From Gammaproteobacteria bacterium (GTDB taxonomy: Bacteria; Pseudomonadota; Gammaproteobacteria; Ga0077554; Ga007554): a DNA stretch of 64,000 bases. The position numbers were made by a program, and so were the translations under genes. The notes under the pieces are model-generated. The model did not search any database, had not been told where the DNA came from, and saw only the letters and a list, made by a program, of their open reading frames with translations. Shown piece after piece: positions 11,123-59,563 of the stretch (positions within the stretch are counted from its first letter, which is position 1; the number at the start of each line of letters is the position of its first letter). Location of the stretch: positions 11,196 to 75,195 of the forward strand of contig JAKFXX010000026.1 in assembly GCA_021731145.1 (NCBI GenBank), given 5' to 3'.

Positions 11123-12283
11123 ATGTTCAATTTCACCGCCCTGCCGCCGCTCTCCCTGTACGTACACATGCCCTGGTGCGTCCGCAAGTGCCCGTATTGC
11201 GATTTCAATTCACACGAGACCAAGGACGCCCTTCCCGAGGCCGAATACATCACGGCATTGATCGCCGATCTTGAGCAGGAGCTGCCGTCGGTGTGGGGGC
11301 GCTCTATTGAAAGCATATTCATCGGCGGCGGAACGCCCAGCCTGTTTTCGCCCGCAGCCTTCGACCGTCTGTTTTCTGAAATTCGCGCGCGACTGCCCTG
11401 TAAGCCCGGCATCGAGATCACCATGGAGGCCAATCCCGGCACTTGGGAATACGGCAAATTCCGCGAATTCCGCGCCGTTGGCGTCAATCGTTTGTCGCTC
11501 GGCATACAAAGTTTCGACACTGGAATGCTGCAAAAGTTAGGACGCATCCATGGCGCGCGCGAGGCGTTTACTGCTGCGGAAACCGCACATGCCGCCGGTT
11601 TTGACAACTTCAATCTTGACCTGATGTTTGGCCTGCCCGGCCAATCCATTGAGCAGGCGCTGGCCGACATCAGGAACGCCATCGCCCTGCAACCAGCGCA
11701 TATTTCCCTGTACCAGCTCACCCTTGAGCCGAATACCGCCTTTTACGTTAATCCCCCCGCATTGCCGGAGGATGACGCACTGTGGGATATGCAGGAACAA
11801 TGCCAAAGCCAGCTCGCAACCCACGGTTACCGGCAATACGAGGTATCCGCCTACGCCCAGCCCGGCCATGAATGCCGCCACAATCTGAATTATTGGCGTT
11901 TCGGCGATTACTTGGGCATAGGTGCAGGGGCGCATGGCAAGATCAGTGATGCGCAGCACCAACGCATCACCCGTAGCTGGAAAGTCAAAAACCCGCGAGA
12001 TTACTTGCTCAAGGCGGCCACCCCAGCGCGCATCGGCGGAACACAACCACTGAAGCGCAACGATGTCGGCCTGGAATTCATGATGAACGCCCTGCGCCTC
12101 ACTGATGGCTTTCCGGTGGCGTTATTTGCTGAGCATACCGGACAGCCGATTTCCATCGTGAAGCAAGGGTTGCAGCAGGCGGAAGAAAAAGGACTGATCG
12201 AATGGGACATCCACACCATCCGTCCCACTGAGCTGGGCAGGCGCTTTCTGAATGATTTGTTAGGTCTGTTTCTGATAGAGTGA
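11123..12283 (+). CDS. hemW: Radical SAM heme chaperone HemW (coproporphyrinogen III oxidase-like, YggW)
   Basis: CxxxCxxC radical SAM motif (CVRKCPYCDF) and the HemN-like fold. Start trimmed to MFNFTALPP at 11123. Confidence 0.85.
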   Translation: MFNFTALPPLSLYVHMPWCVRKCPYCDFNSHETKDALPEAEYITALIADLEQELPSVWGRSIESIFIGGGTPSLFSPAAFDRLFSEIRARLPCKPGIEITMEANPGTWEYGKFREFRAVGVNRLSLGIQSFDTGMLQKLGRIHGAREAFTAAETAHAAGFDNFNLDLMFGLPGQSIEQALADIRNAIALQPAHISLYQLTLEPNTAFYVNPPALPEDDALWDMQEQCQSQLATHGYRQYEVSAYAQPGHECRHNLNYWRFGDYLGIGAGAHGKISDAQHQRITRSWKVKNPRDYLLKAATPARIGGTQPLKRNDVGLEFMMNALRLTDGFPVALFAEHTGQPISIVKQGLQQAEEKGLIEWDIHTIRPTELGRRFLNDLLGLFLIE

Positions 12284-33750: not shown

Positions 33751-33842
33751 AAGTATTCAGTGTAGTTTGGCTCAAGCGGCACCATCCCCTTTTTTCAAAG
33801 GACGGAAGGGCAGGCAGAATGATGCAAGCCGCATATTATCGC

Positions 33843-37793: not shown

Positions 37794-38726
37794 TTACAGG
37801 TGATAGCCAAAGCTATCCTTGAAACGGGCGTAAAATTCCTCGCGCTCGAAGCGGTGGTTCTGGGTGCCGTGATGCTCGATCTTGATCGCCCCCATGAGCG
37901 ACGCGACGCGGCCCGTGGTTTCCCAATCCATGCCGTTCATCAAGCCGTATAGCAGGCCGGCGCGGTAGGCATCGCCACAGCCGGTGGGATCCGCCACCGC
38001 CCTGGGTGCGGCGCAGGGGATGTCGATGCGCTTGTTTGCGGTATAGATGTGCGAGCCCTCGCCACCAAGCGTGATGATCAGCGCATCGACATGCTCGGCC
38101 AGTTCATGCGGTGACTTGCCGGTACGCTCCTGCATGAGCTGCGCTTCGTAGTCATTGAGCGTCACCCAGGTGGCCTGCTCGACGAACTTCATCAGGTCAT
38201 CGCCATCAAACATGGGCATGCCCTGGCCGGGATCAAAGATGAAGGGGGCGCCCGCCTCGGCAAACTGGGCGGCGTGTTGCAGCATGCCGTCGCGGCCATC
38301 GGGCGAAACGATGCCGAGAGTGACGCCTGTGGCGTTTTCAATCTGATTTTCATGGGAAAAATTCATGGCGCCGGGATGAAAGGCGGTAATCTGGTTGTCG
38401 TCCATGTCGGTGGTGATGAACGCCTGTGCGGTGTAGGTGTTGTCGATCACTTTGACGTGCTCAAGACCGACGCCGCAACGCCCCAGCCATTCGGCATAGG
38501 GGCCGAAGTCCGCCCCTACCGTCCCCATCAACGTGGGCTCGCCGCCCAGCAGCTTGAGGTTATAGGCAATATTGCCCGCGCAGCCGCCAAATTCGCGGCG
38601 CATGTTTGCCACCAGAAAGGACACATTCAGGATATGCACCTTGTCAGGCAGGATGTGATTCTTGAATTTGTCATGAAACAACATGATGGTATCATAGGCA
38701 ATGGATCCACAGATCAGGGCTGACAT
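37794..38726 (-). CDS. PfkB-family kinase (adenosine/sugar kinase-like)
   Basis: Ribokinase fold with a C-terminal DPTGCGDAYRAG motif. Confidence 0.7.
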   Translation of the reverse strand: MSALICGSIAYDTIMLFHDKFKNHILPDKVHILNVSFLVANMRREFGGCAGNIAYNLKLLGGEPTLMGTVGADFGPYAEWLGRCGVGLEHVKVIDNTYTAQAFITTDMDDNQITAFHPGAMNFSHENQIENATGVTLGIVSPDGRDGMLQHAAQFAEAGAPFIFDPGQGMPMFDGDDLMKFVEQATWVTLNDYEAQLMQERTGKSPHELAEHVDALIITLGGEGSHIYTANKRIDIPCAAPRAVADPTGCGDAYRAGLLYGLMNGMDWETTGRVASLMGAIKIEHHGTQNHRFEREEFYARFKDSFGYHL

Positions 38727-44536: not shown

Positions 44537-45190
44537 ATGGATTTTTTCAGTTCCTCAATCCGTTTTTTTCAAGACGGCGGTTTTATTATGTACCTCATCC
44601 TTGGGGTGTTCGCCCTGGGGCTCGCCATCGCCATCGAGCGCTATGTCTTCCTGACGTCCGCCCGCAACAAAAACCGGGAAATGTGGGACAAGCTGCTGCC
44701 GGTGCTAAAACGTGGCGAATACAAAGCCGCACAAGACATGATGTCGCAATCCAGCGCCGCCATCTGCAATATTTTATCTTACGGGTTGTCCCGCGTTGTT
44801 ACCAGCCGGCGGCATGACGATGTTGAAACTGCCATGGAAGAAGGCCTCCTGGAAACCGTTCCGCGCCTGGAAAAACGCACGCACTATCTCACCACCTTCG
44901 CCAATGTGTCCACCCTGCTGGGGTTGCTCGGCACGGTTATCGGCCTGATTGATGCGTTTACCGCCGTCTCCAGCGCCAACCCCTCCGAAAAGGCCGCGTT
45001 GCTTTCCGCCAGTATTTCCGTGGGTATGAACTCAACGGCATTCGGATTGATGGTGGCGATACCGCTGCTGCTGATTTATAGCGTGCTTCAGTCCAAAACC
45101 GTTGAACTGGTGGACAGCCTGGAAATGGCGTCCGTGAAAGTATTGAACATCATCAAGGAGCACTCCGACAAGCAAGGCTCACCCCAATGA
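44537..45190 (+). CDS. exbB: MotA/TolQ/ExbB-family proton channel protein
   Basis: Three TM helices and a conserved C-terminal region (FANVSTLLGLLGTVIGLIDAF...SVGMNSTAFGLMVAIP). Confidence 0.8.
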   Translation: MDFFSSSIRFFQDGGFIMYLILGVFALGLAIAIERYVFLTSARNKNREMWDKLLPVLKRGEYKAAQDMMSQSSAAICNILSYGLSRVVTSRRHDDVETAMEEGLLETVPRLEKRTHYLTTFANVSTLLGLLGTVIGLIDAFTAVSSANPSEKAALLSASISVGMNSTAFGLMVAIPLLLIYSVLQSKTVELVDSLEMASVKVLNIIKEHSDKQGSPQ

Positions 45191-45690
45191 GACGCCGCAC
45201 CCTTCTCGCACGGAACGAAGGTGACGAGCTGGACCTCACCGCCATGATCAACATGATGGTGATTCTGGTGTGCTTCCTGCTGACCTCGGCGGTATTTTCG
45301 CGCATCACGGTGCTGGAGCTGAATATGCCGCCTGCCGCTCAGGCATCATCCAGCAGCGCACCCCAACCGAAAAAGGAGCTTCTTCTGGAGGTTATCCTGC
45401 GCAAAAATGCCATTGAAATAAATGACAGGAACGGCAGCTTTTTTGAGCGGATCAATAATTTATCCGGCGGTTACGACATCAAATCCCTGGCGCAAAATCT
45501 TCATCAGTTAAAGGCACGTTTCCCGGAAAAACGGGACGCCTCCATCCTGCTGGAAGATGACATTCCCTATGACCTTCTGGTGCAGGTGATGGATGCGCTA
45601 CGCGAGGAAAGAAGCGGGGCGATGGGATCCGCCGAGCTTTTCCCTGAAATATCCATTGGCGACGCCCCTGCCGGCAAGAAAATAAAATAA
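45187..45690 (+). CDS. exbD: ExbD/TolR-family biopolymer transport protein (copy 1)
   Basis: N-terminal single TM helix (LTAMINMMVILVCFLL), an ExbD fold and an ATGA overlap with exbB. Confidence 0.75.
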   Translation: MRRRTLLARNEGDELDLTAMINMMVILVCFLLTSAVFSRITVLELNMPPAAQASSSSAPQPKKELLLEVILRKNAIEINDRNGSFFERINNLSGGYDIKSLAQNLHQLKARFPEKRDASILLEDDIPYDLLVQVMDALREERSGAMGSAELFPEISIGDAPAGKKIK

Positions 45691-45711
45691 CAAGGGATAC
45701 GGATAGTCGAT

Positions 45712-46200
45712 ATGAAAATGTCACGGCGCGCCAGACGCATGGAGCGGCACCACGCTCGAACAAAGCGGGGCGGCACACTCAACCTGATTGCCCTGGTGGA
45801 TATTTTCACCATCCTGGTGTTTTTTCTTGTGGTGGGCGCCTCCGAGGTGGAAACCTTGCCCAACACCAAGGTGGTAAAGCTTCCCGAATCCATAGTTGAA
45901 AAACAACCCAAGCAAACCATTCTGATCATGGTAAGTGGAACCGACATCATCATGCAGGGCCGCAAAGTGGCCTCCGTAAAAGACGCGCTGGACGCCCCCG
46001 AAGATGTCATCGCGCCACTGAAAAGCGAGCTTGAGCATCAGGCTGGGCGGCAAGACAGCAAAACCAGCAGTGATATCACCATCATGGGAGACCGGCAAAT
46101 TCCCTACAAACTTTTGAAGAAAATCATGGTTACATGTACACAAGCCAATTACAGCAACATTTTTCTCGCTGTGATGCAAAAATCAAGAACGGTGGAGTAA
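45712..46200 (+). CDS. exbD: ExbD/TolR-family biopolymer transport protein (copy 2)
   Basis: LNLIALVDIFTILVFFLVV TM helix with a periplasmic domain. It is a paralog of the upstream copy. Confidence 0.75.
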   Translation: MKMSRRARRMERHHARTKRGGTLNLIALVDIFTILVFFLVVGASEVETLPNTKVVKLPESIVEKQPKQTILIMVSGTDIIMQGRKVASVKDALDAPEDVIAPLKSELEHQAGRQDSKTSSDITIMGDRQIPYKLLKKIMVTCTQANYSNIFLAVMQKSRTVE

Positions 46201-46206
46201 TAAACG

Positions 46207-47235
46207 GTGGCGGTTCATTATCATTCCCCCGATCTGCCATGGGCAATGACCACCCAGGACGAACACCGTTTTCGGGTGATCCTGACATCGGTGCTGGTAG
46301 GCTTTCTGGTGATTTCGAGCGTCATCACGTTTATCCAGGTTCCAAAAATCACCCGGGAACAAGCCGAGGAGGTGCCGCCGCGACTGGCCAAGCTGGTGCT
46401 TGAGCGCAAGCAGCTCCCCCCGCCAGTCGCAAAGCCCTCGCCCGTAAAACCAGTGGCCACAAAGCCGGAACAAGCACCCAAGCCACTGCCTGCGCCGAAA
46501 GCCGAGCTGAAAATCACGCCCCAGCCCGAGAAAAAAATCGAGCCTGTGCAAGTGGCCAAACAAGAGCCCGCGCCAACACCGGCACCGCTGCCCGCAGAAC
46601 CGCCCAAGGTCAACATCGAGGCTGCGCGCAAGAAGGCGGCCAGCTCAGGCCTGCTGGCGTTAAGCAACGATCTGGCGGCATTGCGCGACAAGCCCGTCGT
46701 ATCCAGCACTCAAACGGACGAGAAGCTTATCCAGCCCACCAGGAACGAGCCCTTTGTGCAGCGCTCGATGATCACATCCGGTACGGCGCGCGGGGGCGAG
46801 GGGGTGAAAACTGCCAGCGCCAGCCGCAACATCAGTGGTACGCAACTGGCGGAACGGACGACGACACGCGTCAACAACCCGCAACCCACGGCGCGCCCTG
46901 GCGAGACTGTAGCGCCTAAACCGGCCACGCAAAAAGGCGGCGGCTCGCGCACCGACGATGAAATTCAGTTGGTGTTCGATAAGAACAAGGGGGCGCTGTA
47001 TTCGCTGTATAACCGCGCGCTTCGGCAAGATCCATCCCTGCAAGGCAAGGTAGTGCTCAAGCTGACCATCGAACCCTCCGGCAAGGTCAGCGCTTGCGAG
47101 GTGGTGTCCAGCGCGATGGAGGCACCCGAGTTGATACAAAAGATCGTGGCGCGGGTATTGCTTTTCGACTTCGGCGCCAAAGAAGCCGCCACCACCGTGA
47201 CCAAACTTCCCATCGACTTTTTGCCGTCGTCATAA
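46207..47235 (+). CDS. tonB: TonB-family energy transducer
   Basis: N-terminal TM helix, a Pro/Lys/Ala-rich spacer (PPPVAKPSPVKPVATKPEQAPKPLPAPK...) and a C-terminal TonB domain (YSLYNRALRQDPSLQGKVVLKLTIEPSGKV). Confidence 0.8.
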   Translation: MAVHYHSPDLPWAMTTQDEHRFRVILTSVLVGFLVISSVITFIQVPKITREQAEEVPPRLAKLVLERKQLPPPVAKPSPVKPVATKPEQAPKPLPAPKAELKITPQPEKKIEPVQVAKQEPAPTPAPLPAEPPKVNIEAARKKAASSGLLALSNDLAALRDKPVVSSTQTDEKLIQPTRNEPFVQRSMITSGTARGGEGVKTASASRNISGTQLAERTTTRVNNPQPTARPGETVAPKPATQKGGGSRTDDEIQLVFDKNKGALYSLYNRALRQDPSLQGKVVLKLTIEPSGKVSACEVVSSAMEAPELIQKIVARVLLFDFGAKEAATTVTKLPIDFLPSS

Positions 47236-47247
47236 GCCTCTCCTATG

Positions 47248-47607
47248 CTAGCCCAGCAACACCAGCCCCCACACCACCAGCACGTTGACATGAGAAACCA
47301 TTACAGCCGCTGAGCCCAGATCTTTCGCACGTCCAGCCAATGCGTTGAACTCCATACCGGTACGATCCACGGCCGCTTCCAGCGCGGAGTTGAGCAGTTC
47401 CATGATCAGCACCAGCATCAGGCAACCCACCAGCAGTGCCCGTTCCATGCCGCTATTGCCCAGCCAGATGCCAAGTGGGGCAAGAATCACGAATAGCGCA
47501 AGCTCGATGCGAAAGGCCACCTCAAAAGCTAGCGCCGCCTTGATGCCGTTGAGCGAATAACCCATCGCCCGGACGATATGGACGAGGGGTTTATCCTGGC
47601 TCGCCAT
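47248..47607 (-). CDS. dgkA: Diacylglycerol kinase
   Basis: 119 aa with three TM helices and a DgkA signature (NSALEAAVDR). Confidence 0.85.
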   Translation of the reverse strand: MASQDKPLVHIVRAMGYSLNGIKAALAFEVAFRIELALFVILAPLGIWLGNSGMERALLVGCLMLVLIMELLNSALEAAVDRTGMEFNALAGRAKDLGSAAVMVSHVNVLVVWGLVLLG

Positions 47608-47610
47608 GAA

Positions 47611-49065
47611 TCATCCTAACGGTTTCCAGGCAAGATCCAGTTCGCGTGCGGCCTTAACATCATCCAGGCGCCGCACGGGCAGGGTGTGGGGCGCTGCCTT
47701 GACGATCTCGGGTGTGGTTTGCGCCTCTGTGAGAATCTGTTGCATGGCGGTGATGAAGCGGTCCAGCTCTTCTTTAGCCTCGGTTTCGCTCGGCTCAATC
47801 AGCAGGCACTCCGGCACCAACAGCGGGAAATAGGTGGTGGGTGCGTGATAACCCAGATCGAGCAGGCGCTTGGCGACATCCATGGCGGTGATGCCCAGCT
47901 CCTTGGCCTGACGCTTGAGGGTGACGATAAATTCATGCGTGGCACGGCGCTCTGGAAAGGCCAGGTCATAGCCGCTCTGCGCCAGACGCGCCATCAGATA
48001 ATTGGCGTTGAGGGTGGCGAATTCGGCGACGCGATGCATGCCTTCCGATCCCAGCAGGCGCGCGTAGATATAGGCGCGCAGCAACACGCCTGCGTTGCCC
48101 GCGAAGGCCGAGAGACGGCCGATGGTTTGCGGCCGGTCCGCTTCGGTGAGGAAGCGGTAGGCCTTCCCGTCGCAGTCGACAATAGGTACCGGCATGAAGG
48201 GTAGCAGTCTTTCACTGACGCCCACCGGCCCGGCACCGGGGCCACCGCCGCCATGCGGGGTGGAAAAGGTCTTGTGCAGGTTCATGTGGATGACATCGAA
48301 ACCCATGTCGCCGGGCTTGACCTTGCCGAGAATTGCATTGAGGTTGGCGCCGTCGTAATACAGCAGTCCGCCCGCCTCATGCACGATCCGCGCAATCTCC
48401 ATGATGCGGCGCTCAAACACCCCCAGCGTGGAAGGGTTGGTGAGCATGATCCCCGCCGTGTGCGGACCGACCGCGCCCTTCAGCGCCTCGATATCCACGT
48501 CCCCCTGCGCATCGGTGGGGATCTCGCGCACCGTGTAGCCACACATCACCGCCGTGGCCGGGTTGGTGCCATGCGCCGCGTTGGGCACCAGAATTTCGGT
48601 GCGCTGCACATCATTGCGCGCGTCGTGAAAGGCGCGGATCATCGCCATGCCCGCGAACTCGCCCTGGGCACCCGCCATCGGCGTGAGCGATACGCCCTTC
48701 ATCCCCGTCACCTCCTTGAGCATCTCCTGCAACTCGTACATGCAGGCAAGAAACCCCTGGCTCAGGGATTCCGGCGCGTGGGGATGGCGCGCCAGAAAAC
48801 CCGGCAGCATCGCCAGCTTGTTGCAGGCACGCGGGTTGTACTTCATGGTGCATGAACCCAACGGATAAAAATGTGTGTCGATGGAGAAATTCTTCTGTGA
48901 CAGCCGCGTGTAATGCCGCACCGCCTGAAGCTCGGAAACCTCGGGCAGCAAGGGGCGTTTTTTGCGCCGGAATTTTTCGGGGATGGCCTTTAAATCCGCC
49001 GCTTTGTCTTGCGGGGCCTGCGAGGGATTGCGGCGAGCGGGGCGGGAGTGTTCGAAGATCAACAT
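47611..49065 (-). CDS. gcvPB: Glycine dehydrogenase (decarboxylating) subunit 2
   Basis: 484 aa, PLP fold typical of GcvPB ([24 protein letters not shown]). Confidence 0.9.
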
Positions 49066-49106
49066 GAGATGACTATTCTCTCTAAAAATACCATTCCAAA
49101 ATGCAA

Positions 49107-49125
49107 GGTGCGCACAGTGCGCACC
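49107..49125 (-). terminator. Hairpin (ggtgcgcac-agt-gtgcgcacc) followed on the minus strand by a T-rich tract, between tpx and gcvPB
   Basis: A perfect 8-9 bp GC stem, with TTGCATTTTGG downstream on the minus strand. Confidence 0.5.
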
Positions 49126-49132
49126 CCACAGC

Positions 49133-49633
49133 TTATTTCAGTGCCGCCAGCGCCTTCTCATAGTCCGGCTCCTGGGCGATTTCCGGCACGAGCTCGGTGT
49201 AGATCACGTTGTCACGCTCATCCAGCACCACCACGGCACGGGCGGTGAGGCCGGCAAGCGGGCCGTCCTGAATCAGCACGCCGTATTCCTTTGCGAAATT
49301 GCGGCCACGCATCATCGACAGCGGAATGACGTTGCTCAGCCCCTCGTTACCGCAAAAACGCTTCATGGCGAACGGCAGATCGGCGGAGATGATCAACACC
49401 ACCATGTCATCGCGGGTTTTGGCGAAGTCGTTGAACTTTTTGGTGGAGAGGGCGCACACAGCGGTATCAAGGCTGGGGACAATGTTGAGCAGCTTTTTCT
49501 TGCCTTTGAAGTCGGCAAACTCCTTGTCGCTCAAGTCCTCTGCCACCAATTTCAGGTACGGTGCCCTGCTGCCGGTTTTCGGCAGGTCACCGTTGGTGTT
49601 AATGGGATTGCCTTTCAGTGTGATCGTTGCCAT
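49133..49633 (-). CDS. tpx: Thiol peroxidase (atypical 2-Cys peroxiredoxin Tpx)
   Basis: Tpx motifs ([11 protein letters not shown]...C), 166 aa. It is inserted between gcvPA and gcvPB. Confidence 0.85.
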
Positions 49634-49651
49634 GACCTATCTCCTTGTGGA

Positions 49652-51019
49652 TTACTGCGGTTTTAGTATATCGCGCAAATGCTTGGCAAACAGTTCAAGA
49701 TCATCCGCATTTTTGGTCTCGGTAGCGCACACCAGCAGCGCGTTGCTCAATTCGGGATAATCGTCGCCGAGCTTGTAGCCGCCCAGCAGACCACGATCCG
49801 CAAGCTCACCCAGCACCTCGTCCACCGGGCGCGGTAGCTGTATCACAGCCTCATGGAACAGGGGCCGATCGAATAGCTTGGTAACACCGTCGATAGCGGT
49901 GAGCGCTTCGACCAGGGCCAGGGTATTGGCGTGGCATGCGGCCGCCACACGCTCCAAGCCATCGGGGCCGAGCAGCGCCATATGGATGGTGGCGGCGGTG
50001 ACTACCAGGCCCTGGTTGGTGCAGATGTTGGAGGTGGCCTTGGAGCGGCGGATATGCTGTTCGCGCGCCTGCAGCGTGAGCGTAAACCCTGGTTTGCCGT
50101 CGAGATCGACGGTGCGCCCCACGATGCGCCCCGGCATCTGGCGTACATGCTCCAATTTGCAGCACATGAAGCCGAAGTACGGCCCACCGGAGGACAGCGG
50201 TGCGCCCAGGGGTTGGCCCTCGCCACACACGATATCCGCGCCGTTTTCTCCCCATTCCCCCGGCGGGGTGAGCAACGCCAGCGAGACGGGGTTGGCCACG
50301 CCGATCACCAGCGCGCCGTGGCGATGCGCCCAGTCGGTGAGGGCATCCACTTCCTCCAACACGCCGAAGAAATTGGGCTGTGGGATTACCAGCGCGGCGA
50401 CATCGCCGCCGCTGTATCTTTCCAGCGATTCCGGAACGGTATGACCGCACTCCGTGCAATAGGGCAGCTCGATCAGCTCGATGTTCTGCATGGTGACGAT
50501 GGCGCGCACCACCTTGCGATAGGCCGGATGCACGGTGCCAGGCATCAGCACGCGCCTGGAAGATGACTTGCGGTTGGCGCGCACCGCCATCAACACCGCC
50601 TCGGCCAGCGCCGATGCGCCATCGTACAGCGAGGCATTGGAGACATCCATGCCGGTGAGGCTGGCCATCATGGTCTGGTATTCGTAAAGCAGTTGCAACG
50701 TCCCCTGGCTGGCCTCGGCCTGATAGGGGGTGTATGAGCTGTAAAACTCACCGCGAGTGGCAATCTCCCACACGGCGGCGGGAATGTGGTGGTCGTAGGC
50801 GCCCGCGCCGGCAAAGCACAACGGGCGTCCATCCTGTTCGGCGCGCTGCATCATCAGGCGCGTGACATCCATCTCACTCATTCCTGGAGGGATGGATTTC
50901 AGCGCCGCCGCAGCGCGCAACGCCTCGGGGATTTCGTCAAACAAATCCTCGATACCCGTCGCGCCGATGGCGGCGAGCATGTGCTGGATATCATCTTCTG
51001 TGTGCGGAATAAAAGGCAT
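49652..51019 (-). CDS. gcvPA: Glycine dehydrogenase (decarboxylating) subunit 1
   Basis: 455 aa, typical GcvPA N-terminus [15 protein letters not shown]. Confidence 0.9.
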
Positions 51020-51077
51020 GGGTTGTCTCTTTTATGTTTGTTAGCCACGGAGGCACAGGGGACACAGAGAAAACTAT

Positions 51078-51256
51078 GTAGGTGTAGGTTGGGTCAAGGA
51101 GCGCAAGCTCCGGACCCAACAAGCCATTGCTTCAGGCATTGCGCCCTTCACCGTAACCACCGTAATGCCCGTAAAGGGCACAATGAGGTGGCAATGCGGT
51201 GATAATGTCACGGGTACAATGTTGGGTCCGCTACGCTTGACCCAACCTACATTTAT
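51078..51256. repeat. Palindromic repeat element, copy B (about 180 bp, imperfect terminal inverted repeats of about 35 nt), between gcvH and gcvPA
   Basis: Left arm gtaggttgggtcaaggagcgcaagctccggacccaac, right arm gttgggtccgctacgcttgacccaacctac. It shares a 17-nt core with the copy at 8281-8350. Confidence 0.55.
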
Positions 51257-51286
51257 TATCTCTGTGCCTCCGTGGCAAAAACCAAA

Positions 51287-51682
51287 TCAATGCGCCTCGG
51301 CGGCAACCAGCTCGGCGTAGGCGTTCGCATCCAGCAGGTTGTCCAGCTCGGCGAGGCTGGAGGGCTTGATGTGCATCATCCAGCCTGCGCCATAGGCGTC
51401 TTTGTTTACCAGGTCAGGGCTACCGGCCAGCGCCTTGTTGACGGCGATGACCTCGCCGGAGACCGGACTGTAGACATCGGAAGCGGCCTTCACCGATTCC
51501 ACCACGGCGCACTCCTGGCCCGCCGTAACGCTGCGGCCCGGCTCCGGCAGCTCGACAAACACCATGTCACCCAGCAAATCCTGGGCGTGGTCAGTAATGC
51601 CGACGCGCAGCGTGCCGTCGCTCAACAATTCAACCCATTCGTGGCTCTTGGTGTATTTCAGATTGGCGGGGGTTTTGCTCAT
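51287..51682 (-). CDS. gcvH: Glycine cleavage system H protein (lipoyl carrier)
   Basis: Lipoyl-lysine motif ESVKAASD; start trimmed to [17 protein letters not shown]. Confidence 0.9.
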
Positions 51683-51692
51683 TTCACTATCC

Positions 51693-52880
51693 TCATTTTT
51701 GCTCAATACATGATGCGCCATGGCGCACAAACGGTGGTTTGACTATTCTTACGGCCAGCAGCTTGCCACGCACATCCACTTCAGCATGCTCGCCAGCCTC
51801 TGCCGAGACACGCGCAAAGGCGATGGCTTTGCCCAGTGTCGGCGAAAAACTGCCGCTGGTGATTTCACCGGCCTCGCGGCCATTGATAATGACTTTCTGG
51901 TGATTGCGCAGTACGCCCTTGTCGTCGAGCACCAGACCCACCAATTTGAATTTGGCTCCTTCACTACGTTGCGCCTCCAGCGCTGCTCGGCCGATAAAAT
52001 CGCGCCCGGCTGGCTCCCACGCCACGGTCCAGCCCAAGCCCGACTCCAGCGGGGTGGTGCCCTCGTCCATATCCGCGCCATACAGATTCATCCCCGCTTC
52101 CAGGCGCAACGTATCGCGCGCGCCCAGGCCGATGGGCTTAACACCGGCCTGGTGCAGCCGCTGCCAGAAATCGGCGGCCTGTGCGGCAGGCAACATGACT
52201 TCGTAACCATCCTCACCGGTATAGCCGGTGCGTGCAACGAACAGTTCACCCGCCATCACGGCATGAAACGGCCCCAGCGCGGCGGCCTGTGGCCCGGCGT
52301 CGCCCAGCAAGCCATGCACGGCATCGCGCGCAGCCGGTCCTTGCACGGCGATCATCGCCAGATCGTCGTGCTCTTTTACCGTCACGCCAAAGGCGTCCGC
52401 GCATCGTTTGATCCACGCCAGATCCTTGTCGCGCGTCGCGGCGTTCACCACCAGGCGAAACCACGACGCACACGGATGTGCTAGTGCCGCAGGAGGCACG
52501 ACTCCAGGGATGGAGAAGGTAGAATCGCGTCCGGAACGGCGATCGAGGATGCCGGGAGCGGCCATGAAGTAGACGATCAGATCGTCGATCACACCGCCAC
52601 GCTCATTGAGCATGCAGGTGTAGAGGGCCTTGCCCAACACGGTCAGCTTGTCCACGTTATTCGCCAGCAGATAACGCAAAAACTCGCGCACCCGCTCCCC
52701 TTCGAGATCAACAATGGTCATATGCGACACATCGAACATGCCCGCCGCGCGGCGCACGCTGTGATGCTCCTCGATCTGCGAGCCGTAATGCAGCGGCATG
52801 TCCCAGCCGCCGAAATCAACGATTTTCGCACCCATGCTAAGGTGCGCTTCATACAACGGTGTTCTTTTGCCCATATTCAC
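51693..52880 (-). CDS. gcvT: Glycine cleavage system aminomethyltransferase T
   Basis: GcvT fold ([10 protein letters not shown]), 395 aa. Confidence 0.9.
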
Positions 52881-52889
52881 CTCGGGTAG

Positions 52890-53831
52890 TTATATTTTCG
52901 CCAAAGAAGGCACGACACTAACCGGCCCCTGCTCTTCCTCCGCATGATACGATGAGCGCACCAGCGGCCCCGCTTTCACCCACGCAAACCCCAGCGCGCG
53001 CGCCTCTTGCTCGTAACTGGCGAAGGTCTCCGGGGTTATGTACTCTTTGACCGGCAGATGATGGCGCGTCGGGCGCAGATATTGACCCAGCGATACGCGG
53101 CTCACGCCTATGGCGCGCAGGTCACGCAGTACCTCGGTCACCTCCTCGCGGCGCTCGCCCAATCCCAGCATCAACGACGACTTGGCCGCCACGCCCGGCT
53201 GGCTGGCGGCCCGCTCCAGCAGACTCAACGAGCGCTCATAGCGGGAGCCCTTGCGCACGGTCTTGTATAAACCGGGGACGGTCTCGACGTTGTGCCCCCA
53301 CACCAGCGAGCCTGCTCCGTCCAACGCTGCGGTAATGGTCTGTATCGCCTGCTCCTGGCACTGCTGAAAATCCGGCGTCAGCAGCTCCAGGCCAATGCCG
53401 GGCTTGCGGCGGCGCAGCTCGCGGATGGTATCTGCGAATACTTTCGCCCCGCCGTCCGGCAGATCGTCGCGATTCACCGACGTTAGCACCACATACCCCA
53501 GGCCCATGTTGATGACGGCATTCGCCACGCGGCGCGGCTCGTCGAGATCATATGAACCGGGGCGACCGGCCTTCACCGCGCAGAAACCACAGGCGCGGGT
53601 ACAGGTATCCCCGAGCAGCATGAAGGTGGCCGTGCCGCGGCTCCAGCATTCGCCCCGGTTTGGGCAACGCGCCTCCTCGCACACCGTGTGCAACGCATTG
53701 CCGCGCACGGCATCCGCAGTCAGTGCGTATTGGGAATGATCACCGAGATGCTGGCGTATCCACTGCGGCATACGCCCTACATTGGGCTGTGCAGCGGTCT
53801 GATCAAAAACAGGCGTTATAGCTTGGGACAT
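52890..53831 (-). CDS. lipA: Lipoyl synthase
   Basis: Two Cys clusters (CEEARCPNRGEC and the radical SAM CTRACGFC), about 313 aa after trimming to MSQAITP. Confidence 0.9.
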   Translation of the reverse strand: MSQAITPVFDQTAAQPNVGRMPQWIRQHLGDHSQYALTADAVRGNALHTVCEEARCPNRGECWSRGTATFMLLGDTCTRACGFCAVKAGRPGSYDLDEPRRVANAVINMGLGYVVLTSVNRDDLPDGGAKVFADTIRELRRRKPGIGLELLTPDFQQCQEQAIQTITAALDGAGSLVWGHNVETVPGLYKTVRKGSRYERSLSLLERAASQPGVAAKSSLMLGLGERREEVTEVLRDLRAIGVSRVSLGQYLRPTRHHLPVKEYITPETFASYEQEARALGFAWVKAGPLVRSSYHAEEEQGPVSVVPSLAKI

Positions 53832-53854
53832 GGGTTTCCTGGAGCTGCAAAACA

Positions 53855-54070
53855 AAAAAAGGGCGGCAGATAAACCCCACGCTTATCTGCCGCCCCTCTG
53901 TCCTGTGTACCTGAGAGCTTGAGCCCCTTCGGCGGGCCTGTCCGGGCATGCCGGCGACCACTCTCCAGAGTCAACCCTCTCCCCCGGTCCTTTTGCCTGA
54001 GCGATTCCGGGCGGTTTGCGCCTTCGGCGTCCCGCATCTTAAAATGAGCGCGGGATCTCTTCCAGGGGAG
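53855..54070 (-). ncRNA. Tandem glycine riboswitch (two aptamers plus an intrinsic-terminator expression platform) upstream of lipA-gcvTH...
   Basis: Minus-strand reading shows aptamer 1 (GGAAGAG...ACGCCGAAGGCGCAA...CUCAGGCAAAAGGAC) and aptamer 2 (GGGGAGAGGGUUGACUCUGGAGAGU...GCCGAAGGGGCUCAAG...CUCAGGUACACAGGACAG). A terminator GGGCGGCAGAUAA-loop-UUAUCUGCCGCCC and U7 follow, about 25 nt before the lipA ribosome-binding site. Confidence 0.8.
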
Positions 54071-54212
54071 GGATGTTGAAGCGATAATATACTATGACTG
54101 TGCCAGCGACGCCAGAGCGACGCAACATTTGGGGCCAGAACATAAGTAGTATTAAATATGCTATAACCACTACTACACAACACCTATCAAACAGGCCGCC
54201 AAGGTTACCCGA

Positions 54213-56750
54213 ATGCGCTTTGACACTATCTTCGAGCACGCCCCGTTCAGCATCCAGGTGTTCTCACCGGATGGCGAGACCATCCTCGCCAATCGCGCCT
54301 GGATGGAGCTATGGCACATCTCACTGGAAAGAATAAAGGGTTACAACATCCTGCGTGACCCGCAACTGGTCGAAAAGGGGGTGATGCCCTATATCCAGAG
54401 GGCTTTTTCGGGGGATGCCACCGTGATTCCCGCTATCTGGTATGACGCCGAGAGGGTTGATCCTAACTGCGTACCACCACGCTGGGTACGCGCGTTCATG
54501 TATCCCATCAAGGACGGCGCGCGGATCACCGAGGTGGTCATCATGCACGAGGACCTTACCGCTCAAAAGCTCGCCGAAGATGAATTGCTCAAAACACGCG
54601 ATGAGCTGGAACAAAGGGTACATGAGCGTACCATCGAGCTCGAAAAGGCCAATGCCGCGTTGCGGGCGGAAATCGCGGAGCGGAAATTGGTCGAAGGTGC
54701 ACTGTTTACAAGCGAAGAGCGCCTGGCACATTTTTTCACGGCCTCTTACGAGGGATTGCTGTTCCACGATAATGGCGTCATTCTCGACATTAACCCTGCC
54801 ATCACCGAGCTCCTCGGCTCTCCTCCGGAACAAATCATCGGCAAGCACATCCTGGAACTTGTCGCGCCGGAGTCCCTCAAAAAGGTGGTTGCCAACATGC
54901 AGGCCGGAGAGGAAGGGCCCTATGAGGTGATCGTCCAGAGAAGTGACGGCTCGACTATCCCCGCAGAAGTGCGCGCTAAAAATGTCGAATACCAGAGCCG
55001 CACGATCCGGGTAGTGGCTGCACAGGACATCCGGGAACGCAAAAAAGCCGAAGAAAAACTGCGTCAAGCCGCCACGGTTTTCGACAACACCAGCGAAGCC
55101 ATTGTCATTACCGACGCCGAACACGGTATCGTTGCCGTCAACCGGGCTTTCAGTGAAATCACCGGTCATGAGGCGCCCGAGGTGCTGGGCAAAACACCGC
55201 GCGTCTATCAATCAGGCAGGCGTAACAAGGCCGTGCTCGCCGATCTGCAAAGTTCGCTGCAAACCCACAGCCAGTGGCGGGGTGAAATCTGGAACCGGCG
55301 CAAGAACGGCGACGTCTACCCTGCCTGGGAATGCGTGACGGAAATAAAGGATGAACATGGCCGTGTTACCAACACCGTGAGGGTGTTTTCGGACATAAGC
55401 GCCATGAAAGAGTCGGAAAAAAGACTCCATTACCTTGCCCACCACGACGCGCTTACTGGCCTTCCCAATCGCCTGCTGTTCCAGGAAACCCTCAATCAAG
55501 CGTTACGCCGCGCCAAGCGGCACAAGCAGCGCGTCGCGCTGCTGTTTCTGGACCTGGATCGATTCAAGATCATCAACGACACCCTGGGGCATGCCTGCGG
55601 CGACCGGCTGTTGCAAGAAACCGCCTTGCGCTTGCGCAAGGCGGTGCGGGCCGAAGACATGGTGGCACGGCTGGGAGGCGATGAATTCACCATTATCCTG
55701 TCTGATATTGCTCACCCCGAGGACGCGGCGATACTCGCCAAGAAACTCATCAACGCCGTCGCCGAACCAATCGTTACCGACGGACACGAGATCACCACAT
55801 CCACCAGCATGGGCATCAGCATCTATCCCGACGACGCCGAAGACAGCGAAGGCCTTGCCAAAGCGGCCGATGCGGCCATGTACCGCGCCAAGGAGCATGG
55901 CAGGCACAATTATCAGTTCTACGCAGCAGAACTGACCACGAAGGCTTTCGAACACCTCTCCCTTGAGCAGGGTTTGCGGCAGGCCCTGGCCCGGGACGAG
56001 TTCATTTTGCACTATCAACCGCAATTTACGCTCAAGGACAACCGCCTCTATGGCGTAGAGGCCTTGATTCGCTGGCAGCATCCCACGCTCGGACTGGTGA
56101 CGCCAAGCAAATTCATGCCCGTAGCCGAGGAAACCGGACTCATTGAACCCATCGGCGAGTGGGTGCTACGCACCGCCTGCAATGACGCCAAGACCTGGCA
56201 CGAGGCTGGCCTGCCGTGGGTACGGATCGCGGTCAATATCGCGGGGCGACAAATCCTGCGCGGCAATATCCTGAACACACTGCGTACCATCCAGGAGGAA
56301 GCCGGATTGCGCCCCGGCGAGTTGCAGCTTGAACTGGAAATTACCGAGAGCGATCTTGAGGTCGCGGAGCACAGCATCGAGTTGCTAAGAAGCCTTAAAT
56401 CGCTGGGCGTGACGCTCGCCATTGACGACTTCGGCACAGGTTACTCCTCCCTGAGCCGCCTGAAACACCTGCCGATCGATACCCTCAAGATCGACCGTTC
56501 GTTTGTACAGGATATCCCTCACGACGCGGATGATGTCGCCATCACCAACGCGATTATCGCCATGGCCCACAGCCTGAAATTGAGCGTCATTGCCGAGGGC
56601 GTGGAAACCGCTGAGCAGCTCGCATTCCTGCGGGCGCAGCGGTGCGATATCGTGCAGGGATATTTCTTCAACAAACCGATGCCTGCCGACGAAATACTGA
56701 CACTGCTATCGAATCCGGCTTCTGCCCGGGAAGGTCTTGGATGGCCATGA
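54213..56750 (+). CDS. Signalling protein with three PAS domains, a GGDEF domain (RLGGDEF) and an EAL domain (EALIRW; DDFGTGYSS)
   Basis: Domain motifs read directly; 845 aa, no TM segment. Confidence 0.85.
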   Translation: MRFDTIFEHAPFSIQVFSPDGETILANRAWMELWHISLERIKGYNILRDPQLVEKGVMPYIQRAFSGDATVIPAIWYDAERVDPNCVPPRWVRAFMYPIKDGARITEVVIMHEDLTAQKLAEDELLKTRDELEQRVHERTIELEKANAALRAEIAERKLVEGALFTSEERLAHFFTASYEGLLFHDNGVILDINPAITELLGSPPEQIIGKHILELVAPESLKKVVANMQAGEEGPYEVIVQRSDGSTIPAEVRAKNVEYQSRTIRVVAAQDIRERKKAEEKLRQAATVFDNTSEAIVITDAEHGIVAVNRAFSEITGHEAPEVLGKTPRVYQSGRRNKAVLADLQSSLQTHSQWRGEIWNRRKNGDVYPAWECVTEIKDEHGRVTNTVRVFSDISAMKESEKRLHYLAHHDALTGLPNRLLFQETLNQALRRAKRHKQRVALLFLDLDRFKIINDTLGHACGDRLLQETALRLRKAVRAEDMVARLGGDEFTIILSDIAHPEDAAILAKKLINAVAEPIVTDGHEITTSTSMGISIYPDDAEDSEGLAKAADAAMYRAKEHGRHNYQFYAAELTTKAFEHLSLEQGLRQALARDEFILHYQPQFTLKDNRLYGVEALIRWQHPTLGLVTPSKFMPVAEETGLIEPIGEWVLRTACNDAKTWHEAGLPWVRIAVNIAGRQILRGNILNTLRTIQEEAGLRPGELQLELEITESDLEVAEHSIELLRSLKSLGVTLAIDDFGTGYSSLSRLKHLPIDTLKIDRSFVQDIPHDADDVAITNAIIAMAHSLKLSVIAEGVETAEQLAFLRAQRCDIVQGYFFNKPMPADEILTLLSNPASAREGLGWP

Positions 56751-56925: not shown

Positions 56926-58542
56926 TCACCTCGCCGAACGCCTCACCAGCAAAATCACCGGGATCAACCCCACCAGCACCAGCGTCAGCGCAGGCAAGGC
57001 GGCGGCTTCCCATTCGCCCTCCGAGGTCATCTCGAAGATGCGGATCGCCAGCGTGTCCCAATCGAACGGGCGCAGCAGCAGGGTAGCGGGCAACTCTTTC
57101 ATCACATCCACGAACACCAGCAGCGCGGCGGTGAGCAGACCAGGGCGCAGCATGGGGAGGTAGATGCGCCACAATATCTCGCGGTTACCCGCCCCCAGGC
57201 TACGGGCGGCCTGCTGGATGGAGGGGGTAATGCGCTCCAGCCCGCTCTCCACCGGACCATGCGCCACGGCGAGGAAACGCACCAGATAAGCAAACAACAG
57301 GGCGATGACGCTGCCGCTGAGCAGCAACCCGGTTGAGACGCCAAACCAGCGCTGCGCCAGCACATCAACACCCTGATCCGTCCAGGTGAAAAACAACATG
57401 ATGCCCACCGCCAGCACCGAGCCTGGCATGGCGTAACCGAGTGTCGCCATGCGTACCGCCAGCCCGGTCATCTTGCCCGGCCAGAGCTTGTTTACATAGC
57501 CAAGCAGCAGCGCGCCGCTTACCGTGAGTAGCGCGGCGAGCACACCCAGCATCACGGTATGGGTTACAAACTCCCAATAGCGCTCATCCAGATCGGCAAG
57601 CGCCGTGCCGGACGCCCAGATCGCCAGTTGCGCCACCGGGATCAAAAAGGCCAGCGCCAGCACCAGCGCGGCCGCCGCCGTGGCAGACCACGCGCTCAGG
57701 CCTTTCAGCTTATAGCGGAATTCGGAGGCGCGCCTGCCGCTGCTGTAAAAACGCGCCCGGCCCCGCCAGCGCCGCTCGCCATACAGCGCAAGGGCGACAA
57801 ACAGCAGCAGCAGGGTAGAAAGCTGCGCTGCGGCGTGGATGTTGAATAAACCGAACCAGGCCTTGTAGATGGCAGTGGTGAAGGTATCGTAATTGAAGAT
57901 CGCTACCGCGCCAAAATCCGCCAGCGCCTCCATCAAGGCCAAGGCAACGCCCGCAGCTATCGCCGGACGCGCCATGGGCAGGCAGATGCGCAAGAACACC
58001 TGCCACGGCGCAAGGCCGAGGATGCGCCCGCTCTCCAGCATGTTGCGCCCCTGGCCGAGAAAGGCCGCGCGCGCCAGCATGTACACATAGGGATACAGCG
58101 CCAGCGCCAGCACCGCGATAACCCCGCCCTCGGAGCGGATCGGCGGAAACCAGACATTATCCGGCCCAAGCAATTCTCGCAGGCCACTCTGCACCGGTCC
58201 GCTGAAATCCAGCAGGCCCACCGCAACAAACGCCAGCACGTAGGTGGGAATACCCAGTGGCAGCATCAGCGCCCAGTCGAAGACGCGGCGCCCCGGAAAC
58301 TCGCACATTGCCGTCAGCCATGCCAAGCCCACGCCGAGCAGCAGCACACCAAAACCGACACCGATGACCAGTACGGCGGTGTTGCGCAGCAGCTCACCCA
58401 GCACCGTATCGGCCAGGTGCCGCCACACCTCGCCTTCCGCTACCAGCCAGGCGGGCAACAGCGTCAGGAGGGGGATTGTTACCAGCAATGCGACGGTCAG
58501 GCTGGCCAGCCGCCACCCGCCGCCGCTGGCGGCAAAGTTCAC
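56926..58542 (-). CDS. fbpB: Iron(III) ABC transporter permease (FbpB/HitB-like, duplicated 6+6 TM)
   Basis: A 538-aa fused permease with two EAA-like loops (MEALADFGAV / MKELPATLLLRPF). Confidence 0.75.
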   Translation of the reverse strand: MNFAASGGGWRLASLTVALLVTIPLLTLLPAWLVAEGEVWRHLADTVLGELLRNTAVLVIGVGFGVLLLGVGLAWLTAMCEFPGRRVFDWALMLPLGIPTYVLAFVAVGLLDFSGPVQSGLRELLGPDNVWFPPIRSEGGVIAVLALALYPYVYMLARAAFLGQGRNMLESGRILGLAPWQVFLRICLPMARPAIAAGVALALMEALADFGAVAIFNYDTFTTAIYKAWFGLFNIHAAAQLSTLLLLFVALALYGERRWRGRARFYSSGRRASEFRYKLKGLSAWSATAAAALVLALAFLIPVAQLAIWASGTALADLDERYWEFVTHTVMLGVLAALLTVSGALLLGYVNKLWPGKMTGLAVRMATLGYAMPGSVLAVGIMLFFTWTDQGVDVLAQRWFGVSTGLLLSGSVIALLFAYLVRFLAVAHGPVESGLERITPSIQQAARSLGAGNREILWRIYLPMLRPGLLTAALLVFVDVMKELPATLLLRPFDWDTLAIRIFEMTSEGEWEAAALPALTLVLVGLIPVILLVRRSAR

Positions 58543-58555
58543 GGGTACTCCGCCG

Positions 58556-59563
58556 TCATTTATACCCGGCCCGGTCCATCAACATCACTGCTTTGGCCTG
58601 CAACTTGCCGGCTTCTGCGACGCTAATGCTGTCCTGCTTGAAGCTGCCCCAGGCTGCGACGAGCGGATCAGGCTTGACCTTGGGGTTCACCGGGAACTCC
58701 AGGTTGGCGTCGGCGAAGAGGTTCTGCGCCTTGGTGGAAGACAGCCACTCCAGGAACTTCACTGCGGCTTCGGGATGCTTGGCATGCTTGGTCACGCCCG
58801 CGCCCGACACGTTGACATGAACACCGCGGTCATTCTGGTTGGGCCAGAAAATACCCATTGGCGCCTTGGGATTCTTGCGTATAAGACGGCCATAGTAATA
58901 ACTGTTGACGATGCCCACATCGCACTGCCCCGCCGCCATGGCATCCAGCAGGTTCTCATCGTCCGAGAAGGGCGGGGTCGCCAGGTTTTTCACCCACGAC
59001 TTCACGATCTCTTCGCTCTTCGCCTCGCCCAGCTCAGCGATCATCATTGCCACCAGCGACTGGTTATAGACCTTCTTGGAGCTGCGCAGACACAACCGGC
59101 CCTTCCATTTGGCATCACCCAGCGCCTCGTAGGTGGACAGATCACCCGGTTTGACCTTCCTGGTGTTATAAATAATCGTGCGGGCGCGCACCGACAGGCC
59201 ATACCACTGACCGTCCGGATCACGCAGATGCGCAGGGATATTGTCGTTGAGAACTTTCGAGTCCACCTTCGCCAGCAGCCCGCTTTGCTCCGCTTGCCAC
59301 AGATTGCCCGCGTCCACCGTGATCAACAAATCCGCAGGCGTCTTCGCCCCTTCGGCCTTGAGACGCTCCAGCAGCGGACCTTCCTTGCCCGTCAACAGCT
59401 TGATATGCGTGCCCGTTTCTTTTTCATAGGCGTTCACCAGCGGTTTGACCAATTTCTCAATACGTGCGGAATACACCACCAGCTCCTCCGCAGCCTGTGC
59501 GACCGGCTGGAAGGCGAATATTGCGAACGCAACGAAAGGGGCGGCGCGTTTGGTGAGTGGCAT
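58556..59563 (-). CDS. fbpA: Iron(III) ABC transporter periplasmic binding protein (FbpA-like)
   Basis: Signal peptide, 335 aa, ferric-binding-protein fold. Confidence 0.75.
   Translation of the reverse strand: MPLTKRAAPFVAFAIFAFQPVAQAAEELVVYSARIEKLVKPLVNAYEKETGTHIKLLTGKEGPLLERLKAEGAKTPADLLITVDAGNLWQAEQSGLLAKVDSKVLNDNIPAHLRDPDGQWYGLSVRARTIIYNTRKVKPGDLSTYEALGDAKWKGRLCLRSSKKVYNQSLVAMMIAELGEAKSEEIVKSWVKNLATPPFSDDENLLDAMAAGQCDVGIVNSYYYGRLIRKNPKAPMGIFWPNQNDRGVHVNVSGAGVTKHAKHPEAAVKFLEWLSSTKAQNLFADANLEFPVNPKVKPDPLVAAWGSFKQDSISVAEAGKLQAKAVMLMDRAGYK

Follow-up and report, generated by a model that had tools for sequence, protein, structure and literature searches.

A tandem glycine riboswitch ahead of lipA in a conserved lipA-gcv gene cluster of sulfur-oxidising Proteobacteria

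Operons in which a tandem glycine riboswitch precedes genes of the glycine cleavage system are the closest described relatives of the locus analysed here. In Bacillus subtilis, the gcvT-gcvPA-gcvPB operon is said, in work ascribed to Mandal and colleagues in 2004, to carry such a riboswitch. Operons with gcvPA and gcvPB under tandem glycine riboswitches also occur in Pseudomonadota (2025 survey, PMC12452182). In Streptomyces griseus and Burkholderia, glycine riboswitches placed before gcv genes are activators of expression, as cited in PMC12452182 and PMC12674515, and the S. griseus riboswitches are reported to provide an experimental precedent for the activation of glycine cleavage genes for glycine detoxification (Tezuka and Ohnishi 2014). 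Here we analyse a stretch of 64,000 nucleotides (hereafter the window; positions 11,196 to 75,195 of contig JAKFXX010000026.1, Gammaproteobacteria bacterium assembly GCA_021731145.1) in which a tandem glycine riboswitch on the minus strand is followed first by lipA, the gene for lipoyl synthase, and then by gcvT, gcvH, gcvPA, tpx, gcvPB and dgkA (Table 1).

The window resembles the B. subtilis operon in having an adjacent pair of RF00504 aptamers, a terminator beside helix P1 of aptamer 2, a split P protein and, presumably, induction of glycine cleavage. Unlike the window, the B. subtilis operon reportedly lacks lipA, gcvH, tpx and dgkA; the window further differs in that lipA would be the first regulated gene and in that P1 and the terminator overlap by just 4-5 nt. 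With the proteobacterial gcvT-gcvH-gcvP and gcvT-gcvH-gcvPA-gcvPB operons (PMC12452182; Sun et al. 2013, PMC3766115) the window shares the riboswitch class, the phylum and the core genes, but in the window lipA is interposed between riboswitch and gcvT. Conceptually, the closest precedent is the Thermacetogenium phaeum cluster gcvT-gcvH1-gcvPA-gcvPB-lpd-lplA1 (PMC12674515), which likewise combines gcv genes with a lipoylation enzyme. There, the salvage ligase LplA sits at the end of the cluster, lpd is present and a riboswitch before the cluster is not described, whereas the window has the sulfur-inserting synthase LipA at the head and no lpd. The S. griseus operon content also differs, reportedly comprising gcvT-gcvH, gcvP, glyA and sdhA with no cofactor-maturation or peroxidase gene (Tezuka and Ohnishi 2014).

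Neither lipA, lipoyl synthase nor tpx is found among the glycine-regulated genes in the text and supplementary text of PMC12452182 and of the 2013 regulon reconstruction (PMC3766115), and a literature search found no relevant link between the glycine riboswitch and lipA, lipoyl synthase or lipoate. The arrangement seems to extend the glycine regulon in a conserved way that public genomes show but that has apparently gone undescribed in the literature.

The riboswitch leader and the genes behind it

An Rfam scan of the whole window, with a gathering score of 32 bits for RF00504, returned two matches on the minus strand (54074-53975 and 53974-53888) that abut head to tail at 53975/53974, a tandem that recurs in most of the related loci; beyond these, no Rfam family reached its gathering score in the 64 kb. 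An earlier reading made from the sequence only had proposed a tandem glycine riboswitch with a terminator and U-tract upstream of lipA, and had named beforehand an RF00504 match on the minus strand at 53855-54070 as its check; the Rfam matches together with a terminator scan bear this out. The low Rfam score of aptamer 2 is due to its short P3b arm, a form that is conserved across the clade, and the invariant core positions are all kept. With a clade covariance model (R1), built from 31 aptamers of related loci and then run on all loci, aptamer 1 scored 89.4 bits and aptamer 2 scored 50 bits. Across 82 clade aptamers, 96.7% of the cells in the aptamer helices were paired, with 327 compensatory cells compared to 107 in shuffles, and the covariation score was 0.626 compared to 0.174 for shuffles and at most 0.142 for slid partners; double changes occurred in 11 of 17 pairs. 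The alignment was fitted to the model and so leans towards the structure. Judged by these matches, the riboswitch is an ordinary tandem-type member of RF00504.

A CATAGTATATTA box (54096-54085), which includes the -10-like TATATT of a putative promoter, is invariant in the window and in the related loci L001, L002 and L003, with diverging flanks. Transcription plausibly starts from this putative promoter, a few bases upstream of aptamer 1.

Table 1. Features of the lipA-gcv region, in the order of the minus strand
Feature	Coordinates	Strand	Evidence
Putative sigma-70 promoter	54085..54115	-	-35 CTGGCG 54115-54110, 18-nt spacer, -10 TATATT 54091-54086
Glycine riboswitch aptamer 1	53975..54074	-	RF00504, 63.5 bits, E 8e-11; full model (positions 1-94)
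Glycine riboswitch aptamer 2	53888..53974	-	RF00504, 34.9 bits, E 0.0027; model positions 1-94
Predicted intrinsic terminator (expression platform)	53847..53899	-	Terminator scan: hairpin 53899-53857, 19 pairs, 9 G-C; then TTTGTTTTGC
lipA, lipoyl synthase, 313 aa	52890..53831	-	TIGR00510, 363 bits vs cutoff 310; Radical_SAM and LIAS_N domains
gcvT, aminomethyltransferase	51693..52874 (GTG start option 52880)	-	TIGR00528, 434 bits
gcvH, lipoyl carrier H protein, 131 aa	51287..51682	-	TIGR00527, 162 bits; ESVKA lipoyl-lysine motif
REP/MITE-like nested palindrome	51020..51286	.	Inverted repeats I8 and I12; 267 nt, fills the gcvH-gcvPA gap
gcvPA, glycine dehydrogenase subunit 1	49652..51019	-	NF001696, 619 bits
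tpx, thiol peroxidase	49133..49633	-	NF001808, 242 bits vs cutoff 123; Cys60 and Cys94 (peroxidatic/resolving cysteines)
REP-like hairpin GGUGCGCA-CUG-UGCGCACC	49107..49125	-	Perfect 8-bp stem, 3-nt loop; sequence and fold
gcvPB, glycine dehydrogenase subunit 2	47611..49065	-	NF003346, 737 bits
dgkA-type prokaryotic diacylglycerol kinase	47248..47607	-	PF01219, 108.7 bits

Genes were named with curated NCBIfam and Pfam models whose matches lay well above the cutoffs, and the T, H, PA and PB proteins all gave equivalog-level matches. The first gene 3' of the riboswitch is lipA. Its product carries the CX4CX5C motif of the auxiliary cluster at residue 51, the CX3CX2C motif of radical SAM enzymes at residue 77 and RSSY at residue 292, and the gene most likely starts at the ATG at 53831, behind AGGAAA, rather than at the TTG at 53855. 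For gcvT, the ATG at 52874, with a GAGG ribosome-binding site 7 nt before it, is probably the start rather than the GTG at 52880. The 9 bp between lipA and gcvT given by the sequence-only reading thus hold if the GTG is used, but become 15 nt with the likelier ATG. The gcvH start, an ATG at 51682, follows gcvT after 10 nt. The same reading had described a split P protein with tpx between the two subunit genes, and the curated models NF001696, NF001808 and NF003346 agree; tpx comes 18 nt after gcvPA. Lying outside the range first described, dgkA begins 3 nt after the gcvPB stop codon and is the last gene of the string. The gaps along the string measure 15 (or 9), 10, 18, 67 and 3 nt, plus the 267-nt gap that holds the repeat. 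The cluster lacks lpd, the gene for the L protein.

We compared the window with the best 80 LipA loci (L001-L080) from a scan of one genome per GTDB species, using tblastn with the window proteins to follow gene order. Two extra loci from outside the best 80, L081 (with a LipA that a source names Candidatus Tenderia electrophaga) and L083 (Ectothiorhodospiraceae bacterium 2226, CP054689.1), were examined through gene calls and Pfam labels. The window LipA itself had no record in an exact-sequence look-up, and its best database relatives, with 93-95% identity, belong to uncultured Gammaproteobacteria. Gammaproteobacterial sources of the 80 loci include Thiohalomonadaceae, Thiohalophilus, Thioalkalispiraceae, Acidiferrobacterales, Ectothiorhodospiraceae and Chromatiales, and the betaproteobacterial sources include Thiobacillus, Sulfuriferula, Hydrogenophilales and Tepidiphilus.

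Every sufficiently long locus among the 80 has its genes on a single strand in the order lipA-gcvT-gcvH-gcvPA-(tpx)-gcvPB-dgkA, and gcvT is the next gene after lipA in all 76 loci with downstream sequence. Both L081 and L083 have the same gene order with aptamers upstream of lipA. The gap between lipA and gcvT has a median of ∼20 nt, and the two genes overlap by 1-14 nt in 18 of the 78 measured loci, which therefore have no room for a separate promoter region. At the Rfam gathering threshold, all 20 short loci searched showed aptamers immediately ahead of lipA. With R1 they were detected 50-340 nt upstream of lipA in 71 of the 80 loci, which corresponds to 71/77 once three loci with too little upstream sequence for the test are set aside. 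The R1 search found no aptamer between lipA and gcvT or elsewhere in the cluster in any of the loci. In these loci the aptamers thus lie upstream of lipA and never before gcvT, and lipA and the cleavage genes appear to share one glycine-sensing leader, as had been proposed. If glycine control of gcvT, gcvH, gcvPA and gcvPB exists in this clade, the sequences indicate that it must run through the lipA leader, because the cluster holds no other aptamer and related gcv operons are riboswitch controlled.

We rejected the view that only this genome has the arrangement, given that gcvT stands beside lipA in all 76 related loci. By gene order, the lipA-first layout is the norm for a large clade that spans at least 70 species of sulfur-oxidising bacteria in two proteobacterial classes.

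A probable single transcription unit and its proposed switch

We consider it quite probable that the region forms one glycine-inducible transcription unit on the minus strand, running from the promoter through the tandem glycine riboswitch and its terminator, lipA, gcvT, gcvH, the repeat, gcvPA, tpx and gcvPB to dgkA. At low glycine, transcripts would stop at the terminator (53899-53857). At high glycine, both aptamers would bind glycine and RNA polymerase would read through, allowing the T, H and P proteins of glycine cleavage to be made. LipA converts octanoyl-H protein to lipoyl-H protein, and read-through would also provide this enzyme, so that the H protein would be turned into its active form, along with thiol peroxidase. 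In terms of established biochemistry, making LipA together with GcvH would match a maturation enzyme to its apoprotein client. The shared strand, the short gaps and a gene order conserved in distant species argue for co-transcription of the string, while activation by glycine is what we infer from other tested gcv leaders and from physiological logic.

Several observations weigh against this proposal. A consensus promoter scan called nothing at 54085-54115, which makes the promoter tentative. A terminator was not detected by a crude scan in 26 of 68 aptamer-bearing loci, and the core hairpin of the window terminator still forms in RNAfold when both P1 helices are forced. Six loci keep the gene cluster without aptamers. 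Finally, folding predictions suggest that transcripts could be stopped, paused or processed at the 267-nt palindrome that separates gcvH from gcvPA.

The predicted terminator lies directly 3' of aptamer 2. The DNA reads GGGGCGGCAGATAA...TTATCTGCCGCCC followed by T7GT4, and the core stem of the RNA, GGGGCGGCAGAUAA / UUAUCUGCCGCCC followed by U7GU4, has a predicted fold of -32.6 kcal/mol. The extended stem reaches AGAG, the 3' strand of aptamer-2 helix P1. A hairpin with a U-run was found 3' of aptamer 2 in the other 42 of the 68 aptamer-bearing loci; the stem interiors are unrelated and the GGGGCG/CGCCCC base is conserved. Compensatory changes in the stem and the conserved base indicate that the terminator is under selection. 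In the 26 loci where the scan detected none, control may be translational.

Helix P1 of aptamer 2 has just five Watson-Crick pairs (CUCUG/CAGAG), with the terminator core starting directly behind it. The two share no more than AGAG(G), whose pairing partners are the first Us of the U-run, and no simple competition of P1 with the terminator emerged from the RNAfold test. Since the core hairpin persists with P1 forced and the overlap is short, the ON direction is drawn from other leaders, and the mechanism may be modulating or kinetic. The same geometry would suit a riboswitch that is not a transcriptional activator but an OFF switch, a translational switch or a weak tuner acting through an AGAG:UUUU extension of the stem, and such a reading gains from the loci with no detected terminator and from the invariant UUGAC...CAGAG-GGGGCG flanks, which lack an explanation. 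We nevertheless regard it as quite unlikely: repressing glycine catabolism at high glycine would be physiologically senseless, the terminator is strongly conserved through compensatory changes, and homologous gcv leaders tested elsewhere are activators, as cited in PMC12452182 and PMC12674515.

The six loci without aptamers are L009, L016, L019, L020, L032 and L058. For the first five, R1, nhmmer and a covariance search with filters off all detected no aptamer; for L058, R1 and nhmmer detected none. Because these loci retain the cluster, the riboswitch is dispensable for the linkage of the genes. In L009 (9860-9970), a decayed remnant of the 3' end of aptamer 2 and of the terminator (GGACAGCGGGGCGACGAAGGG..CTTTCGTTGCCTCATCATTTC) is still visible, with a mismatched stem and the U-run gone. 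This suggests that the riboswitch was lost and the terminator inactivated there, which fits a terminator that needs to be overcome for expression. Such losses, together with an aptamer 2 that lies barely above the Rfam threshold (34.9 vs 32), could also be taken to mean that the window leader is a decaying relic and its operon constitutive. This is highly improbable: the short aptamer 2 is the conserved form of the clade and fits the clade model well, every invariant core position is retained, and the terminator is perfect in the window but degraded where aptamers were lost. A glycine-inducible unit remains our preferred reading.

Some of the related leaders show features of their own. The L009 remnant lies behind an ABC-transporter operon, with a REP sequence (TGTAGGAGCCGAC..GTCGGCGAAC) just upstream. 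L016 (3280-3510) has a different leader of ∼250 nt with a terminator-like hairpin, GGCGACAC..GTGTCGCC, followed by a T-run, and could represent an undescribed leader ahead of the same lipA-gcv cluster; Rfam scans by E value gave no credible family for the leaders of L009 and L016. In L017, a Sulfuriferula metagenome-assembled genome (MAG; 147-348 and 1520-1608), a near-duplicate of aptamer 1 and a second aptamer are located 1.17 kb upstream of another aptamer, which in turn precedes lipA. The one intervening open reading frame (ORF) that was scanned had no Pfam match, and it seems that the riboswitch has either received an insertion or been duplicated. L033 and L038 are two contigs of one MAG (JALSHD01), each with riboswitch-lipA-gcvT in similar yet non-identical sequences, and this pair could be a strain mixture in the bin or a true duplication.

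Repeat elements, the P-subunit slot and the flanks

The 267-nt palindrome has outer arms of GCCACGGAGGCACAGAG and inner arms of TGTAGGTTGGGTCAAG, and as mRNA it folds at -126.5 kcal/mol with no U-run after it. Its ends are conserved at the same site in L001 and L002, the two closest relatives, and its central ∼90 nt occur in the window only. Apart from the two arms, the window holds one further copy of the arm repeat, a match with 2 mismatches at 33761. The smaller hairpin at 49107-49125, in the 67-nt gap before gcvPB, is present in L002, the closest relative, and absent in L001. Its candidacy as a conserved intrinsic terminator was rejected, as its tail is UUGCAUUUU, the terminator scan did not call it and L001 lacks it. 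The view that a repeat element and a hairpin punctuate the operon is right in that both are present, but they look more like repeats of REP/MITE type, absent or partial in relatives, than like a conserved regulatory feature.

These elements raise the question of whether the string is split into two or more units, with the riboswitch governing lipA alone or lipA-gcvT-gcvH and the palindrome (51020-51286) or internal promoters separating the rest. The 267-nt gap with its very stable hairpin and the 67-nt gap before gcvPB, where a GC-rich hairpin has a T-rich tail, speak for such a split, and REP-type hairpins in other bacteria are known to cause unequal upstream and downstream expression within operons. 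However, the palindrome has no U-run, the promoter and terminator scan called nothing on the minus strand inside the cluster, and relatives have these genes contiguous, with ∼25 nt between gcvH and gcvPA in L003. With a centre found in the window only, and the small hairpin confined to the window and L002, both elements must be recent additions, and gcvPA and gcvPB have no aptamer of their own in any locus. A split therefore appears unlikely to us, and a single unit through dgkA is still favoured.

Similar REP/MITE-like palindromes, with arms of tandem 7-9-mers, occupy the longer lipA-gcvT gaps of other species, namely those of L006, L007, L012, L013, L019, L032, L051 and L063. Taken together with the window palindrome, they have arm repeats such as CACGGAG-GCACAGAG, GCAAAGG-CGCAAAGGA and CGCAGAG, fold at -29 to -126 kcal/mol as mRNA and lack a following U-run. 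From their sequences, we read them as repeats of REP/MITE type settled in intergenic gaps and not as a conserved regulatory design. They may influence how stable the mRNA is or how strongly the genes before and after them are expressed relative to each other.

Between the two P-subunit genes, the relatives are variable. Among the 58 loci with both genes, tpx fills this slot in 40, the two genes are adjacent in 12, and an MBL-fold gene of ∼325 aa is found in 6; tpx is joined by a further gene, DSP-phosphatase-like or MBL-fold, in 4/58. The slot can thus be empty or be taken by tpx, by the gene for an MBL-fold hydrolase of ∼325 aa or for a DSP-phosphatase-like protein of 177 aa, or by tpx plus either of the latter two. 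Variants are seen between gcvPA and gcvPB in L009, L019, L040, L047, L053, L072 and L083, as well as in L004 (14590-15120) and L005 (7434-7964). For L019, L040, L053 and L083 the MBL-fold identity comes from Pfam or gene calls; elsewhere it is deduced from insert size. On the downstream side, 50 of 53 loci have dgkA behind gcvPB, and dgkA is, like tpx, a conserved member of the cluster.

A more far-reaching reading is that the cluster goes beyond glycine catabolism and forms a redox module centred on the H protein in autotrophic sulfur oxidisers. Glycine, for example from 2-phosphoglycolate salvage after RuBisCO oxygenation, would induce LipA, GcvH and Tpx, and Tpx or its MBL-fold replacement would draw electrons from dihydrolipoyl-H protein, so that peroxide would be removed at the expense of glycine oxidation, with no need for the L protein, whose gene the cluster lacks. 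An analogue would be the lipoamide-dependent AhpC/AhpD system of mycobacteria. We think this scheme rather improbable.

Beyond dgkA comes a convergent gene, a 342-aa ORF standing last in an exbB-exbD-exbD unit (44537-47235). In L081 and L083, a pfkB-family kinase gene directly follows dgkA, while in the window such a gene lies 9 kb away on the minus strand (37797-38726). We considered and rejected a decay of pfkB downstream of dgkA in the window, since the gene is intact at its distant position. The gene orders point to a local rearrangement in which the exbB-exbD-exbD unit and the 342-aa ORF abut dgkA in place of pfkB.

On the other side, a plus-strand gene (54213-56750) for a PAS-PAS-GGDEF-EAL protein of 845 aa diverges from the promoter region of the riboswitch. 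The protein is DibA-like at 717 bits, below the cutoff, and its gene separates the lipA leader from ABC-transporter genes (56926-59563), which in L083 are directly upstream of lipA.

What the arrangement would mean for glycine regulation

The locus had been described as departing from the textbook order of a riboswitch followed by gcvTHP. This is true as regards lipA in first place and tpx between gcvPA and gcvPB, but the departure is not specific to this genome, being the norm of its clade. The components are conventional, their co-regulation is sensible rather than surprising, and the known biology of the riboswitch and the enzymes is not overturned. What is of interest is the breadth of the conservation, the position of lipA as first gene, the variable slot for redox genes and the geometry of the switch.

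For annotation, a simple rule follows for this clade: the riboswitch precedes lipA and not gcvT. Where glycine cleavage or reductive glycine pathways are to be engineered, which need lipoylation of the H protein, the cluster can also serve as a design precedent from nature. It raises the questions of why a peroxidase lies between the P-subunit genes and whether lipoylation is glycine gated. Should the lipA of the window be the sole gene for lipoyl synthase, glycine would gate the whole of protein lipoylation in these bacteria.

The layout is fixed across a wide span of sulfur-oxidising Gamma- and Betaproteobacteria, and it is therefore selection, and not accident, that holds these genes together. 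The regulon of the glycine riboswitch would thereby reach past catabolic enzymes and transporters to include LipA, which matures a cofactor, and the antioxidant enzyme Tpx.

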